64,000 nucleotides of DNA from Escherichia coli (GCF_009931435.1 NZ_CP043414.1), one strand, 5' to 3'. Numbered from the stretch's first letter, positions 49,247-58,459 are shown. The notes: a model not told the origin generated them from the sequence alone. Made by a program: numbers and translations.

Positions 49247-49944
49247 ACACTTGCTCCTTTCAGTCCGAACTTAGCTTTAATTTCTGCGATCTTCGCCAGA
49301 GCCTGTGCACGATTTAGAGGTCTACCGCCCATAACAGGAAGTTGTTTTACTGGTTCAGGTATCGTCTCACCACGGTTAATTCGCGCTGTCATACAGGTCA
49401 GTTCATCGGCAGCCTTGCGCCGTAATTCCGCGTCAGCCAGCGCATTGGCCCGCATGTTCTGGTACAAGTTGGTAACCAACCAGTAATGCGCGTTCGATTT
49501 CCACGGATAAGACTCTGCATCCGGATACAGGCCACGCTTCCGGCAATACTCGTAAACCATATCAACCAGCTCGCTGACGTTTGGCAGCCCGGCGTTAACA
49601 GATGCTTCTTCCCGGCACCAGGCGACAAACTGCCCGGGTGATGGCAGGAATGGTCGATTCTGCCGACGGGCTACGCGCATTCCAGCGTTAACCTGTTCCA
49701 TTGTGGTGATCCCGTTTTCCCGGAAAGCCAGAACCCACTGGCGGCGGATTTCGTTCAGTTCATTCTGGTCACGGTTAGCCAGGCTAGCCGGGAAAGTTGC
49801 CAGTAACTGGCTGAACACACCGTTGATGATCTGCGCTACCTGCTGTACCTGCGGCTTTTCGTCGTACTGTTCCGGCATATTGTTGGCGATCCGGCGCATC
49901 TGCTCACGGTCAAAGTTAACCATCTGTGCGGCGATGTTTTTCAT
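49243..49944 (-). CDS. P: Replication protein P (DnaB helicase loader)
   Basis: ORF track 233 aa, lambda gpP length. Confidence 0.9.
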   Translation of the reverse strand: MKNIAAQMVNFDREQMRRIANNMPEQYDEKPQVQQVAQIINGVFSQLLATFPASLANRDQNELNEIRRQWVLAFRENGITTMEQVNAGMRVARRQNRPFLPSPGQFVAWCREEASVNAGLPNVSELVDMVYEYCRKRGLYPDAESYPWKSNAHYWLVTNLYQNMRANALADAELRRKAADELTCMTARINRGETIPEPVKQLPVMGGRPLNRAQALAKIAEIKAKFGLKGASV

Positions 49945-50960
49945 AAATCCACCCCGTAAATCCAGTCAGTGTTCGTCAGGTCGAGTTTTGGTTTGCCGGC
50001 TGTCACGCCAGCCTGTTGCTTGTTTCGGTTGATTTCGAGCTGGGTCCACTTGTCGCGGAGTTTGGCCGGACTCAGCACGTTACCGGACCAGAAGTTGTCC
50101 TGGCATGCCCAGCGGAACAGCACGCACATGTCGCGGTGGTTACGTCCGTCACGTTCACGCATCAGGCGGATATCGTTAGCCCACCCTGCAAAATTCGGTT
50201 TTCTGGCTGATGGCGCGATGGTCTTCACCATGTCAAACATCCACTCTGCGGCGGTCAGGTCTTCTGCTGTCCCCCACTTGCTGCCACTCTGAATTGCAGC
50301 ATCCGGTTTCACCACAGGAAGGTCGTTTTCTGGCTGGTCAGAGGATTCGCCAGAATTCTCGGACGAAAAAGGTTTTATATTGTCTTTTGTTAGTTTGTCT
50401 TTTGTGTTTACCTGATTCGGGTAAACGCCTTTACCTGATTTGGGTAAACTTTTCTTACCTGATTCAGGTAAATTTACCTCTTTCAGGTAAACTTTATTTT
50501 TCTTACCTGATTCGGGTAATGTTGACCATTCACTGACCACATTATTAATGCCGATATTTCGCCCGCTCTGAATAAGAATCCCACGCTTTACCAGAACGCT
50601 TTTTGCAGCAGAACACTTGTGCGGCAATATCCCGGTCAATTCGGAAAGTTGCTCGTTGCTCACCCAATCCAGTCTTTTATTAAAGCCATATGTTTTGCGC
50701 ATGACAGCCAGGAAGACCAGAAGCTGGTGCTGTGTTAATCCGGCCAGCATCACAGCTTCCAGCAACTCATTTGCAATGCGCGTATAACCATCATCGAGAT
50801 CTGCCACGCGCGGCTCCTTTTGTGCCGCATCCGGCACTGGAAAATTGAATATCTCAGCAGTGTTTGCCATAATTCCTCCCGCAATGAGTGTGTTACGATT
50901 TGCACCTGAAAGTCGGTTCTGTTCCCGCAGACCGACTTTCGCCATTTCTGAACCTATCAT
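49941..50960 (-). CDS. O: Replication initiator O (lambda-like C-terminal half; non-lambda N-terminal half and iterons)
   Basis: ORF track 339 aa; contains ori iterons and AT-rich segment; start overlaps upstream stop (ATGA). Confidence 0.85.
   Translation of the reverse strand: MIGSEMAKVGLREQNRLSGANRNTLIAGGIMANTAEIFNFPVPDAAQKEPRVADLDDGYTRIANELLEAVMLAGLTQHQLLVFLAVMRKTYGFNKRLDWVSNEQLSELTGILPHKCSAAKSVLVKRGILIQSGRNIGINNVVSEWSTLPESGKKNKVYLKEVNLPESGKKSLPKSGKGVYPNQVNTKDKLTKDNIKPFSSENSGESSDQPENDLPVVKPDAAIQSGSKWGTAEDLTAAEWMFDMVKTIAPSARKPNFAGWANDIRLMRERDGRNHRDMCVLFRWACQDNFWSGNVLSPAKLRDKWTQLEINRNKQQAGVTAGKPKLDLTNTDWIYGVDL
50405..50525. repeat. Phage replication origin: about five iterons of the form TACCTGATTCGGGTAAAC inside the O gene
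   Basis: Direct repeats each with internal dyad TACC..GGTA, read on the + strand; adjacent AT-rich stretch. Confidence 0.7.
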
Positions 50961-51496
50961 ATTGCCCCCAGCATGGTGGTCACCATCGCCATTAATGGAC
51001 CAGCCAGATCCGGGTCCACACGAAACATCGACACAATACCTTCACTCATTTCCTTCAGTTTCTGGTGGCGTGGTGCGTTGAGAATGACAGCCTGTTTTGC
51101 CTCACTGAGTTCCTTTTCCATTTCAGCCAACCGAGTCATGAAGCTATCCTGCTCAACCAGGTAACCGCGATATTCCAGCGGTAGTACCGCCAGAATTGCC
51201 GGGGTCAGTTCACGCACGTTATTTCGGTATTTTTCAGAATCGAATTTGTTATCGAGGAAGCGGAACAGCTTCTGGCGTGCACGGCTGACATCATCAGGGA
51301 AATCGATGGTGCCGTCGCCCTGCTCCCGATACTCATTCACAATGAGTGCGGCAACGACATCCTGATTATCTACAGCCGACCAGGCGCGGACGGCATCACG
51401 GATTTTTTCGTGGCCTGGAGCTTGTTTTGTTTGAGAACGATTTATCACCGCAGTCGGAATAAATCCGCTAGTCTGTTGGTATGTAAGTGGTTGCAT
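50957..51496 (-). CDS. YdaT-like protein at the cII position
   Basis: ORF track 179 aa; follows the Cro-like gene and is coupled to O. Confidence 0.55.
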   Translation of the reverse strand: MQPLTYQQTSGFIPTAVINRSQTKQAPGHEKIRDAVRAWSAVDNQDVVAALIVNEYREQGDGTIDFPDDVSRARQKLFRFLDNKFDSEKYRNNVRELTPAILAVLPLEYRGYLVEQDSFMTRLAEMEKELSEAKQAVILNAPRHQKLKEMSEGIVSMFRVDPDLAGPLMAMVTTMLGAI

Positions 51497-51565
51497 AATT
51501 GACTCCTTTAGTTTGAATTGACTGTTAAGTTGATTGCTTATTGTTAAAGAGCGTGAAATGGAAAT

Positions 51566-51796
51566 TTAAGCTGCGTTCTTTTCGGTGTGTGGAAACAACT
51601 TCGGAAGATCCGGGCGAATCTGGTATGCCTTCACAACTCCACCAGTAGCCGTAACAATGCTGCCGACATGTTCAGGGGATACCTTTGCTTTGTTGTGAAG
51701 CCACTTATAGACGGCCTGCTGTGAAACTTCGCAGGCATCGCCTAGTTTCTTTTGTGAACCAACGATATTGATCGCTGTTTTGATTGCTGGGTTCAT
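51566..51796 (-). CDS. Cro/YdaS-like HTH regulator
   Basis: ORF track 76 aa; HTH (QQAVYKWL); divergent from repressor gene. Confidence 0.7.
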   Translation of the reverse strand: MNPAIKTAINIVGSQKKLGDACEVSQQAVYKWLHNKAKVSPEHVGSIVTATGGVVKAYQIRPDLPKLFPHTEKNAA

Positions 51797-51900
51797 AACA
51801 ACCTCCGTGGTTAATCCGAATCAAGATTAAAACTATGGTTGTTTTTAGTCAACAACCATTTTCGTTTGATGAAATAAAACCTTGGTTGTACATTTGATCT
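51797..51900. promoter_or_regulatory. Right operator/divergent promoter region with ATGGTTGTT-N7-AACAACCAT palindrome and extra TGGTTGT half-sites
   Basis: Inverted repeat read at about 51835..51859 between the divergent repressor and cro-like genes. Confidence 0.55.
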
Positions 51901-52590
51901 ATGAAAACAACACTCTCAGAAAGACTTAAAGAAGCCAGATTAGCGCGAGGCCTTACACAAAAGGCGCTTGGGGATTTGGTCGGGGTTAGCCAGGCTGCTA
52001 TTCAGAAAATCGAAACAGGGAAAGCTAACCAAACAACTAAAATCGTGGAGATCGCGAACGCTTTGGGTGTACGCGCAGAATGGTTATCTTCTGGCGTTGG
52101 AAATATGTCAGACAGTACAGTGCAACCAATACAATCAACTGTCAGCCATTCCAAATACTTCAAAATTGACGTTCTTGATATAGAAGTCAGTGCCGGGCCA
52201 GGTGTAATCAACCGTGAGTTTGTAGAAGTTCTACGCTCGGTTGAGTACTCGTTTGACGATGCTCGTCACATGTTCGATGGCAGGAAGGCGGAAAATATCC
52301 GCATCATTAACGTGCGAGGTGACAGCATGTCAGGGACGATCGAACCAGGTGACCTGCTGTTCGTTGATATCACTGTTAAATCTTTCGACGGTGATGGCAT
52401 CTATGCGTTTCTGTACGACGACACTGCCCATGTAAAACGTCTTCAAATGATGAAGGATAAGCTGCTGGTTATCTCTGATAACAAGAGCTACTCGCCGTGG
52501 GACCCGATCGAGAAAGACGAGATGAACCGGGTGTTCATATTCGGTAAGGTCATTGGAAGCATGCCGCAGACGTACAGGAAGCATGGTTAA
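51901..52590 (+). CDS. Prophage repressor, LexA/S24-peptidase type (CI analogue)
   Basis: ORF track 229 aa; N-terminal HTH plus C-terminal autoproteolysis domain. Confidence 0.85.
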   Translation: MKTTLSERLKEARLARGLTQKALGDLVGVSQAAIQKIETGKANQTTKIVEIANALGVRAEWLSSGVGNMSDSTVQPIQSTVSHSKYFKIDVLDIEVSAGPGVINREFVEVLRSVEYSFDDARHMFDGRKAENIRIINVRGDSMSGTIEPGDLLFVDITVKSFDGDGIYAFLYDDTAHVKRLQMMKDKLLVISDNKSYSPWDPIEKDEMNRVFIFGKVIGSMPQTYRKHG

Positions 52591-52819: not shown

Positions 52820-53200
52820 ATGAGAAAAATCCTAATCGCTGCCATGATGGCATCTGTATTGGCTGGGTGTGCTTCTTCAGGCAACCAGCAACTCAAAAAT
52901 GAAACTGAAATTAGTGTCCAGTCTAAACTTCAGGAAGGTAAAACAACCAAGAATGAGGTTAAATCTTACTTTGGTTCTCCTGATGCTGTTTCATATACTG
53001 ACAGTGGAAAGGAGATCTGGAAGTACGCCTTTGCAAAAGTAAAAGTTAATGGCACCACTTTTATTCCATTCTATGGATTATTCCATAACGGAACGAACGG
53101 TACGAAAAAAGAACTTACTATTCTTTTTAACGATGACACGATTAAGAAATACACAATGTCAGAAACCCAAATAAACTCGAAATCAGGTTGGGCTGACTGA
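52820..53200 (+). CDS. Putative lipoprotein, unknown function (cargo gene downstream of repressor)
   Basis: ORF track 126 aa; signal peptide with lipobox LAGC; own terminator downstream. Confidence 0.7.
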   Translation: MRKILIAAMMASVLAGCASSGNQQLKNETEISVQSKLQEGKTTKNEVKSYFGSPDAVSYTDSGKEIWKYAFAKVKVNGTTFIPFYGLFHNGTNGTKKELTILFNDDTIKKYTMSETQINSKSGWAD

Positions 53201-53217
53201 TAATCATACCCGGCAAC

Positions 53218-53246
53218 CGCGCCGGGTTTTCTTTTCCTCCCCCTCA
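53218..53246 (+). terminator. Intrinsic terminator after the lipoprotein gene
   Basis: Hairpin cccggc-aaccgc-gccggg followed by ttttctttt. Confidence 0.65.
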
Positions 53247-53476
53247 TAACTCATACCGTCCAAAAAACCACCACACCTCACTTCAGTTATCGCTATGCGA
53301 TGCAAGTCACAAAATAAATCCATCCTAAATACAACCAGTTATATTTAAAACAACCGATAAAACAACTTTTGTTGTTGACGATAAAACAACTATAGTTTTA
53401 AATAAATTCATCGCAACGACACAACGATACGGTAACCACCTGTTTCACCGTTGCGATGACCGCTTAGATCCGCAGT

Positions 53477-53887
53477 TTGAATTTCAGCAGGCTTCGGGGA
53501 GTGCGAGGGGTGAAACGGACGCGTGAACGTCGGTGTGACCAGCTGAAATCAACACAACACTTTATACCTCAGTCGCTTCAACGAGGCGGCTTAGTTATGA
53601 CAACCGGCGGCCATCCACCGCCTGAATACGCGCAGAAGTCTCTATATGTTCAGCAGCCCAGCTTACGGGCAGGAGTTTTTATGGTTCATCAACATTACGG
53701 AACGCAGACCGTTAATCGAGGTGCGGTCATGCCAGGAATGCTGGTCAAACACAAAGATGGTACCTGGACTGCATCAGCTAATTTACGCGGACGGCTTTAT
53801 CTGCATCGCGGCATCGAGCGCACTTATACCCGTGATTTGCTCGTGGAAGTTTTTCTCGACGGACGCGGTAACGGCCTGAATCGCTAA
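53477..53887 (+). CDS. Hypothetical protein at the early-left position (possible start at 53597)
   Basis: ORF track 136 aa from a non-ATG start; first ATG (MTTGG...) has a weak RBS; in frame with and 75 bp upstream of gam. Confidence 0.4.
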
Positions 53888-53962
53888 TCCCCTTTCCTGT
53901 TTTCCTAATCAGCCTGGCATTTCGCGGGCGATATTTTCACAGCCATTTTCAGGAGTTCAGCC

Positions 53963-54259
53963 ATGAACGCTTATTACATTCAGGATCGTCTTGAGGCTCA
54001 GAGCTGGGCGCGTTACTACCAGCAGATCGCCCGTGAAGAGAAAGAGGCAGAACTGGCAGACGACATGGAAAAAGGCCTGCCCCAGCACCTGTTTGAATCG
54101 CTATGCATCGATCATTTGCAACGCCACGGGGCCAGCAAAAAAGCCATTACCCGTGCGTTTGATGACGATGTTGAGTTTCAGGAGCGCATGGCAGAACACA
54201 TCCGGTACATGGTTGAAACCATTGCTCACCACCAGGTTGATATTGATTCAGAGGTATAA
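53963..54259 (+). CDS. gam: RecBCD inhibitor Gam (short form)
   Basis: ORF track 98 aa; recognised lambda Gam C-terminus ...[10 protein letters not shown]. Confidence 0.9.
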
Positions 54260-57005: not shown

Positions 57006-57348
57006 GGCCTGTCAGTTTCTTAAGATATCCAGACCAACCGCCACCAACTGGATACGAACAGGCCGCCTACAGGCAACACGTAAAGATCCAACCAAGCCAA
57101 AATCTCCTTACCTCACAACACGGCAAGCCTGCATTGCGGCGCTTCAGTCTCCGCTGCATACTGTCCAGGTGAGCGCGGGTGATGGCATAACAGAGGAAAG
57201 AAAATGTCACTCTTCCGCAGAAATGAAATATGGTATGCCTCGTATTCGCTCCCGGGCGGGAAACGAATTAAGGAATCTCTTGGCACAAAGGACAAGCGGC
57301 AAGCTCAGGAGTTGCACGACAAGCGAAAAGCAGAACTCTGGCGAGTAG
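56977..57348 (+). CDS. xis: Putative excisionase (HTH, AlpA/Xis-like N-terminus); 3' end uncertain, overlaps int
   Basis: ORF track 56947..57348; internal Met MESYSL..; N-terminal HTH; position upstream of int. Confidence 0.5.
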
Positions 57349-58367
57349 AAAAGCTAGGGGATTTACCTGATGTCACTTTTGAAGAGGCCTGCCTAAGATG
57401 GCTTGAGGAAAAAGCTGATAAAAAATCTCTCGATTCAGATAAAAGCCGGATTGAGTTCTGGCTTGAACATTTTGAGGGTATAAGGCTTAAAGATATCTCG
57501 GAGGCAAAGATTTACTCTGCTGTAAGCAGAATGCATAACAGAAAGACGAAAGAAATATGGAAACAGAAAGTTCAGGCCGCCATCAGGAAAGGTAAAGAAC
57601 TGCCTGTTTATGAACCAAAGCCAGTATCAACTCAGACAAAGGCAAAGCATCTTGCCATGATAAAGGCCATTCTCCGTGCTGCAGAACGCGACTGGAAGTG
57701 GCTGGAAAAAGCGCCTGTCATCAAGATACCAGCGGTCAGAAACAAGCGAGTCAGATGGCTGGAAAAGGAGGAAGCAAAACGCCTTATTGATGAGTGCCCC
57801 GAACCACTGAAATCTGTCGTCAAGTTTGCGCTGGCAACTGGTCTGAGAAAGTCGAACATCATAAATCTGGAATGGCAACAAATCGACATGCAGCGACGAG
57901 TTGCCTGGGTGAATCCAGAAGAGAGCAAATCAAACCGCGCCATTGGTGTGGCGCTGAACGATACCGCCTGTAAAGTGTTGCGTGATCAAATAGGCAAGCA
58001 TCACAAATGGGTGTTTGTACATACCAAGGCGGCTAAGCGAGCAGATGGAACATCAACGCCTGCGGTCAGGAAGATGCGCATCGACAGCAAGACATCATGG
58101 CTATCAGCTTGTCGTCGTGCAGGAATTGAAGATTTCCGTTTCCATGACCTCAGACACACCTGGGCAAGCTGGCTGATTCAGTCAGGCGTCCCATTATCAG
58201 TGCTTCAGGAAATGGGCGGATGGGAGTCCATAGAAATGGTTCGTAGGTATGCTCACCTTGCGCCTAATCATTTGACAGAGCATGCGAGGAAAATAGACGA
58301 CATTTTTGGTGATAATGTCCCAAATATGTCCCACTCTGAAATTATGGAGGATATAAAGAAGGCGTAA
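57204..58367 (+). CDS. intD: Tyrosine integrase (DLP12 IntD-like)
   Basis: ORF track 387 aa; C-terminal catalytic domain; adjacent to tRNA-Arg. Confidence 0.9.
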
Positions 58368-58382
58368 CTGATTGAATTGTAA

Positions 58383-58459
58383 TGGCGCGCCCTGCAGGAT
58401 TCGAACCTGCGGCCCACGACTTAGAAGGTCGTTGCTCTATCCAACTGAGCTAAGGGCGC
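58383..58459 (-). tRNA. argU: tRNA-Arg (anticodon UCU, argU)
   Basis: 77-nt sequence with CCA end matching argU by recall; its 3' 45 nt is the prophage attachment repeat. Confidence 0.88.

Follow-up and report, generated by a model that had tools for sequence, protein, structure and literature searches.

A conserved structured leader element between PL and a KilR-family kil gene in an apparently N-less lambda-like prophage of Escherichia coli

We analyzed a stretch of 64,000 nucleotides from Escherichia coli (GCF_009931435.1, NZ_CP043414.1; called the window below, with positions counted from its first letter) and conclude, with a probability of about 90%, that the region between its lipoprotein gene and gam is the OL/PL region of an N-less lambda-like prophage, followed by an untranslated leader of ~270 nt and by kil as the first and only gene before gam-bet-exo. 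A preliminary description of this DNA had instead placed an unassigned early-left gene of 96 to 136 codons there. The value of our analysis is corrective in that the gene at 53681-53887 is already known and annotated as a cell-division inhibitor, i.e., it is not a new early function, and in that the conflicting lengths given for it in different records are settled at 68 aa. Beyond this, the leader holds a conserved structured element (element X below) that had been missed in the preliminary description and that also precedes many other early-left genes and occupies the experimentally defined tL1 region of phage phi80.

The immunity region and early-left arm of the window belong to a lambda-like prophage in which leftward (PL) transcription runs on the plus strand. 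The genomic setting comprises the following features:

49941-50960, minus strand: replication gene O.
50957-51496, minus strand: gene for a YdaT-domain protein of 179 aa in the cII position (RefSeq "toxin YdaT domain-containing protein").
51566-51796, minus strand: cro-like gene.
51901-52590, plus strand: gene for a cI-like S24 repressor.
52820-53200, plus strand: lipoprotein moron between cI and OL.
53208..53236, plus strand: intrinsic terminator closing the lipoprotein moron, found by terminator scan.
53888..53962, plus strand: spacer between kil and gam, with homology to the long gam frame of the lambda type (5' part).
53963-54259: gam, 98 aa, followed by bet, exo, and more small genes.
57204-58367: int, next to a tRNA gene.

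The lipoprotein moron occupies the slot that is filled by rexAB in lambda. The terminator that had been noticed behind it is indeed present as a 7-bp stem (53208-53227, 6 G-C pairs) followed by the T run TTTTCTTTT, and this stem is kept in 10/10 related phages despite a different upstream gene. The block between the moron terminator and OL (53240-53320) is conserved in two immunity types and contains the palindrome ATCGCTATGCGAT (53289-53301); it might act as an upstream promoter element or bind a protein. At the other end of the region, the kil stop codon marks a mosaic junction, behind which the kil-gam spacer matches the 5' coding part of the long lambda-type gam, so that only a 98-aa Gam can be made here. 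In phage D2 (L010 788-1451), the same leader is followed by the end of a cIII gene and by a kil gene that we take, from our own reading of the sequence, to be those of lambda, as well as by a 417-nt gam. The YdaT-domain protein in the cII slot resembles Rac-type immunity regions, while the recombination arm is otherwise lambda-like. A tRNA gene (58386-58459, minus strand, 72 bits) with the anticodon loop CUUCUAA, presumably Arg-UCU, is found 19 nt past the integrase gene and is likely the prophage attachment site. The query is 100% identical to E. coli 2011C-3911 (NZ_CP015240.1) over its length, and leader plus kil are present in 2,238 of 5,426 complete E. coli genomes (41%).

The region between the moron terminator and the end of kil is composed of these parts:

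53325..53401, no strand: OL operator region with two full operators and AACAAC half-sites.
53375..53403, plus strand: PL promoter with -35 TTGACG (53375-53380), 17-nt spacer, and -10 TTAAAT (53398-53403).
53408..53459, plus strand: stem-loop with an 11-bp inverted repeat that begins near the probable 5' end of the PL transcript.
53444..53559, plus strand: non-coding leader segment with an arginine-rich open frame, ~95-99% conserved in three immunity types.
53560..53622, plus strand: element X, consisting of (C/T)ATACC, a first hairpin (hp1), GTT-ATG-ACAACC, and a second hairpin (hp2).
53623..53680, plus strand: leader tail with the conserved block GCGCAGAAGTCT, a tentative third hairpin (hp3), and a Shine-Dalgarno sequence.
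53681..53887, plus strand: kil, encoding a 68-aa cell-division inhibitor of the KilR family, based on profiles, RefSeq, and codon pattern.

The preliminary description had pointed out a promoter-like element of the form TTGACG-17-TTAAAT amid AACAAC repeats, and both are present, the former as PL and the latter as parts of perfect matches to the operator pattern AAAACAACNNNNGTTNT that overlap it. One full operator (53359-53375) covers part of the -35 hexamer and the other (53383-53399) covers parts of the spacer and the -10 hexamer with a spacing of 24 bp, and further AACAAC half-sites lie at about 53328-53335 and 53347-53354. The third and last perfect match to the pattern in the 64 kb is found between cI and cro (51829-51845), where 51827-51845 is reverse-complementary to 53383-53401 at 95%. 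With up to 2 mismatches, 17 matches were obtained compared to 7.3 +/- 2.9 expected, a number reached by none of 100 shuffles. In relatives, a patch of ~95 bp (53322-53418) is swapped for unrelated operators (of the CAATAGC type) that represent two other immunity types, with flanks that are 90-99% identical. The promoters of these other types, TTGATA-17-TATTAT and TTGACT-17-TATTGT, are found at the equivalent position, and the first falls into the same alignment columns. As judged from a consensus common to the cI-cro operators, operators that overlap the promoter hexamers, and an immunity-specific block swap, all of them hallmarks of lambdoid phages, the promoter in the AACAAC repeats is OL/PL, and we infer that transcription starts around position 53410. 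PL escaped a consensus promoter scanner, whose rule demands that the second base of the -10 hexamer be A.

The preliminary description had correctly placed a gene in the kil position next to gam, and this is the sole gene between PL and gam. It matches PHROG 294 ("Kil protein for bacterial septation inhibition") with E=3e-38 over profile positions 4-79 of 83 as well as NCBIfam NF008465 (KilR) with E=1.8e-16 and 59.9 bits, which is below the curated cut-off of 92; positions 1-67 of this profile align to residues 69-133 of the 136-aa ORF. KilR of the Rac prophage is 36% identical over 61 residues by BLASTP (E=9e-13, Met1 to Met1), and RefSeq WP_000233577.1, a "phage encoded cell division inhibitor protein", corresponds exactly to 53681-53887. 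The view of an unassigned gene without recognizable similarity was thus overturned by confident matches to a characterized protein. The product also shows the hallmarks of its family, i.e., a length of ~68-73 aa and a start of the form M-x-x-x-H-(Y/F)-G-T, and by these comparisons, kil is a member of the broad KilR family outside the narrow Rac subfamily. No Pfam model matches the kil ORF, and there is no solved structure for any of its relatives. An AF2 model built from 13 relatives reached a pLDDT of 87 and displays six beta strands, with order declining toward both termini (mean pLDDT of 75 over the first ten residues and 74 over the last ten), and 25/25 Foldseek matches of this model at E<=1e-3 are Kil/KilR-type division inhibitors. 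Rac KilR is an experimentally established inhibitor of FtsZ and MreB with a disordered C-terminal tail that is essential for toxicity (PMC12482147). By homology, the Kil protein of the window would block FtsZ-ring formation and may possibly also act on MreB. Its C-terminal tail has 9 residues compared to 12 in Rac KilR and is unrelated in sequence; because the tail essential in Rac KilR is not conserved, the mechanism could differ in detail.

The open frames that had been reported exist as described, with 136 codons from a TTG start (53477-53887) and 96 from ATG 53597. Public records give kil five lengths or frames, i.e., 68, 77 (in another frame), 96, 125, and 139 aa (L001, L003-L010, UniProt), and one UniProt entry names the 125-aa version "modular protein". 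Across more than 300 loci examined, every kil relative has the same Met start and length. In phage PhiR30_1, a T inserted directly ahead of ATG 53681 breaks the long frame and leaves only the 68-aa ORF intact, and among 70 unique copies, 13 carry an in-frame TAG at 53570 and one carries a TAA at 53579. Variable sites are distributed over the three codon positions as 5/4/22 in kil (24 synonymous and 8 nonsynonymous), compared to 4/3/4 in the arginine-rich frame (4 synonymous, 7 nonsynonymous) and 3/4/6 between ATG 53597 and kil (6 synonymous, 8 nonsynonymous). Given these stops, indels, and the missing third-position excess, the arginine-rich stretch is not translated within a conserved protein. 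The comparative evidence therefore supports 68 aa alone, in line with the RefSeq CDS and in place of the 96 to 136 aa proposed earlier. Translation would begin at ATG 53681, which is preceded by the Shine-Dalgarno sequence GGAG (53672-53675) at a distance of 5 nt, and by the same pattern of variation, the 136-, 125-, and 96-aa readings are an open frame crossing a non-coding leader.

Near the probable 5' end of this leader is a perfect 11-bp inverted repeat that had been seen before, with arms at 53408-53418 and 53449-53459 that are 30 nt apart. The repeat on its own is unexceptional, as the window has 17 inverted repeats of this size or larger (>=11 nt, within 60 nt) and this one belongs to the shortest. 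Its conservation is partial, in that two immunity types retain 8 to 10 of the pairs and the third retains 5: G53418 is an A in 8/10 relatives, immunity type B loses the first two stem pairs, and only CATCG/CGATG is left able to pair in immunity type C. Another group of kil phages has a similar hairpin (GACAAC/GTTGTC) upstream of kil, directly behind the promoter-like region. The stem-loop may plausibly stabilize the 5' end of the mRNA. Homology to all relatives starts at 53444 or earlier, and the segment 53444..53559 is found only in 16 close relatives within our phage collection. The leader shows weak similarity to the lambda PL leader 3' of nutL (7/1000 shuffles for the core and 17/500 for the whole leader), for which blastn did not report an alignment, so that homology between the two may at most be raised as a possibility. 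The overall folding energy of the leader is no better than that of shuffled sequence (z = -0.1 to -0.3).

Element X was discovered via more distant kil loci (HK225, KO-TP1) as a conserved module upstream of kil. A covariance model (R1) finds it in the window with 85.7 bits (E about 1e-21) as the sole copy in the 64 kb. In hp1, positions 53567-53578 pair with 53583-53594 around the apex TTC-AAC-GAG, and 8 of the 12 pairs change on both sides among variants. Its covariation score is 0.40 compared to at most 0.10 in slid registers, and 0/500 shuffles reach 0.40. The fraction of cells that are paired is 88% on the plus strand versus 74% on the minus strand, with 44 G.U wobbles, and this better pairing on the plus strand is as expected for a sense RNA. 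The hp1 helix is real. The second hairpin, hp2, is formed by GGCGG (53606-53610) and CCGCC (53618-53622) with the loop CCATCCA; it served as search key and is therefore invariant among the variants, and phi80 has one mismatch in it. Altogether, 26 nt of X are invariant while both flanks vary, and the AUG of X is invariant in 59 variants, including rare ones in which indels shift the frame yet hp2 is kept; what is conserved is not the peptide. We disfavor a leader peptide stalling at Pro-Pro-Pro (MTTGGHPPP), given that five rare X variants shift the frame between AUG and hp2 and that the conserved nucleotides past the prolines are read in all three frames. We also rejected a promoter, whether within X or on the opposite strand, because inspection revealed no acceptable hexamer spacing and the covariation of hp1 favors RNA.

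The element is not specific to kil. Of 110 motif matches with enough downstream sequence, 65 have no kil within 900 nt and carry other, unrelated genes behind the same leader. X is single-copy per phage and was found in phages or prophages of Escherichia, Klebsiella, Enterobacter, Citrobacter, and Salmonella, i.e., only in Enterobacteriaceae. It directly follows an intrinsic terminator in 78/142 unique contexts, and the genes upstream of this terminator-plus-X arrangement are N in some phages and unrelated in most. The tail behind it is a mosaic of short blocks that also occur in leaders of unrelated genes, and its GCGCAGAAGTCT block is read in all three frames across different phages. The tentative hp3 in the tail (GCCC 53656-53659 / GGGC 53667-53670) was not recovered by RNAalifold, and its register shifts among variants. 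An IMG/VR contig (L400) has an X-kil leader with a 37-nt tandem duplication of the tail (GCAGAAGTCTCTATATGTTCAGCAGCCCAGCTTACGG) that doubles the tentative hp3. Rfam gave no match in 53200-53900 even at E<=10, no homology of the leader to the KilS RNA of Rac is visible, and neither the X motif nor its peptide was found in the searchable literature. As far as comparative evidence goes, X is a genuine conserved structured motif that is undescribed in the RNA library and the literature that we searched.

A first indication of what X might do comes from phage phi80, where it scores 71.8 bits with R1 (L469 2506-2567) and is, together with its tail, 90% identical to the HK225 version. The annotated order of the phi80 early-left region is PL, nutL, N, the rho-independent terminator tL1A, X with its tail, a membrane ORF, another ORF, and kil. 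Located between tL1A and tL1B, X thus falls within what has been defined as the tL1 terminator signal of phi80. Behind the X tail of phi80 follows an unannotated ORF of 69 codons (L469 2644-2853, MSDLELGLKIYALWFVG...) that looks membrane-spanning and recurs in several IMG/VR phages, with the annotated rho-dependent tL1B (2682-2719) inside.

The most attractive reading of X, which we nevertheless regard as doubtful, is that of a Rho-dependent attenuator, the counterpart of phi80 tL1B: Rho would load onto X and its tail, so that less transcription reaches kil and the recombination genes, and this limit might be relieved by translation from the X AUG or, where present, by N. This proposal would fit with the annotated position of the Rho-dependent tL1B of phi80 only ~40-75 nt beyond the tail end, with an excess of C over G across X in both phages (ratio 1.3-1.6), and with the frequent location of X directly behind an intrinsic terminator. 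It also agrees with the silencing of Rac kilR by Rho and NusG that was reportedly described by Cardinale et al. in 2008. Depletion of NusG has been linked to kilR-dependent toxicity (PMC5793797). On the other hand, two stable hairpins are atypical of Rho loading sites, the C/G excess is modest, the placement of the phi80 terminator is taken from its annotation, and the phage in the window has no N to override an attenuator yet must express gam, bet, and exo.

Could the invariant AUG of X instead be a genuine start of kil? In this case, two Kil isoforms would be made, the 68-aa core and a 96-aa form from ATG 53597 inside X. Besides the invariance of this codon in 59/59 X variants, the sequence GAG(G) 10-11 nt upstream, a frame that is continuous with kil in the window and most window-type copies, and several records that annotate a 291-nt CDS speak for such a form. 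We consider it unlikely because the frame is broken in PhiR30_1 (by the extra T) as well as in a leader variant shared by L340, L364, and L406, because the same AUG opens ORFs of only ~9-30 codons with different ends or frames in other phages, because the codon-position pattern of 3/4/6 is weak, and because the putative Shine-Dalgarno sequence lies within hp1 and hp2 starts 9 nt after the AUG.

That X and its tail might have no regulatory role at all and merely serve as a conserved linker for the homologous exchange of early-left cassettes appears slightly less probable still. Such a linker would account for a leader that is joined, at the start codon or close to it, to very different genes, and for the mosaic of short blocks in the leader. 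However, a neutral linker would not keep a helix by compensatory changes at 8/12 pairs with a strand bias, nor would it hold 26 nt invariant between varying flanks.

A further proposal builds on the lack of N. No N-like match was obtained in PHROGs or Pfam, the curated annotations of Perceval and PhiR26_1 contain no N, and neither a boxA within 2 mismatches (searched in 53400-53700) nor a nutL between PL and kil was found. The arginine-rich frame was rejected as a relic of lambda N since a Smith-Waterman comparison with the N coding region is not significant (243/1000 shuffles). The preliminary description was right in holding an N-like assignment unsupportable, given stops in 14 unique variants and no match to any N family, and it was also right about missing N, cIII, and ral homologues but wrong about kil, which is of the KilR family. 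Between PL and gam, there are only weak terminator-like hairpins, one within kil and another in a stretch that codes for Gam in lambda-type phages, and in the absence of a strong terminator, expression of kil-gam-bet-exo should not need antitermination or N. On the PR side, a boxA (CGCTCTTTAACAA, 51541-51553, minus strand) is located between cro and the YdaT-type gene, i.e., at the nutR position, as the only perfect match in the 64 kb and with no boxB-like hairpin behind it; it has 12/13 matches to what we take to be the rrn boxA and may recruit host Nus factors alone.

It is very improbable that X is a processive antiterminator RNA of the nut/put kind, or a factor-loading site, that replaces N. 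What speaks for it is an N-less phage with a two-hairpin RNA early in the PL transcript and a consensus boxA downstream of cro. Yet each phage has a single X and no copy on its PR side, a comparison of the PL leader with the PR side in the window shows no significant similarity (134/500 shuffles), X follows a terminator in most phages and is thus on the wrong side to act on it, and phi80 has X in addition to its own N and nutL. In comparisons with the put RNAs of phage HK022, X scores 21 with putL (shuffle mean 18.0, 83/500) and 20 with putR (shuffle mean 17.4, 87/500), while the control comparison of putL with putR scores 44 against a mean of 15.3 (0/500), and a put RNA of the HK022 type is ruled out by sequence and copy number.

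The reading that fares worst, and that is largely refuted already, is a novel early-left protein of 125-136 aa with an N-type arginine-rich RNA-binding N-terminus fused to a Kil domain. In its favor, no stop codon interrupts the frame from 53477 on in the window, GTG 53510 has GGGGAG 8 nt upstream and is an ATG in three unique variants, and versions of 125 and 139 aa are given by some pipelines and in UniProt, but besides the stop codons at 53570 and 53579, the codon pattern, and the insignificant similarity to N coding DNA reported above, GTG 53510 is GGG in one variant, no PHROG or Pfam match extends beyond the Kil core, the fold search aligns only the 68-aa core of the long entries (with a target-normalized TM-score of 0.54 for the 125-aa entry), and the PL leader has no boxA or boxB.

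The most far-reaching view of X and its tail, which we consider less likely than not, is that they constitute an undescribed cis-regulatory leader RNA of lambdoid prophages of Enterobacteriaceae, a structured gate with an AUG that would most plausibly be a translation-sensitive attenuator depending on Rho like tL1B. In the mechanism that we propose, inactivation of the cI-like repressor (51901-52590) would allow RNA polymerase to start around 53410, and the PL transcript would cover first the leader and next kil, gam, bet, and exo with no need for N. Kil would be translated from ATG 53681 with the help of the GGAG as an all-beta protein of 68 residues and, by homology, would block FtsZ-ring formation and possibly MreB so that induced cells filament. 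From its position in phi80, its structure, and its invariant AUG, X may gate the transcription or translation that reaches the toxic early-left genes. Since Kil is toxic and Rac kilR is kept in check by transcription termination, X upstream of kil is a testable candidate for such control, and a gate of this kind, if true, would explain how kil can stay silent yet inducible in the N-less prophages that ~40% of E. coli genomes carry.

The OL/PL region of the window resembles that of lambda in its tandem operators with 24-bp spacing over a sigma-70 promoter, in the consensus that these share with the cI-cro operators, and in its location downstream of a moron and its terminator. It differs from lambda in the operator itself (AAAACAAC-N4-GTT in the window), in the YdaT-type protein in the cII position, and in that neither nutL nor N follows downstream. 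The put RNAs of HK022 are likewise two-stem RNAs early in the PL transcript of an N-less lambdoid phage, but they share no sequence similarity with X, which lacks a second copy on the PR side and is usually found behind a terminator. In phi80, a KilR-type kil is combined with element X and its tail as in the window, but X follows N and tL1A there and is separated from kil by two ORFs, whereas in the window X comes directly after the PL leader in a region without N, nutL, or tL1A. Rac KilR (K-12 b1352, 73 aa) is homologous to the Kil protein of the window, matches the same PHROG and NCBIfam profile, has a predicted beta-rich core with a less ordered C-terminus, and is likewise encoded in an early-left operon beside recombination genes and behind a long leader. 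The two proteins differ in their tails (GRDGLPVKAESW in Rac KilR and DGRGNGLNR in the window), and element X is absent from the Rac leader, which encodes the sRNA KilS. Kil of lambda (47 aa), a ZipA-dependent inhibitor of FtsZ, is not homologous to Kil of the window, which matches no Pfam model at all, and lambda Kil and KilR are unrelated and act differently (PMC12482147). However, both kil genes occupy the slot directly upstream of gam and would belong to the same phenotype class, and phage D2 carries the lambda gene exactly where its relatives have a kil of the window type.
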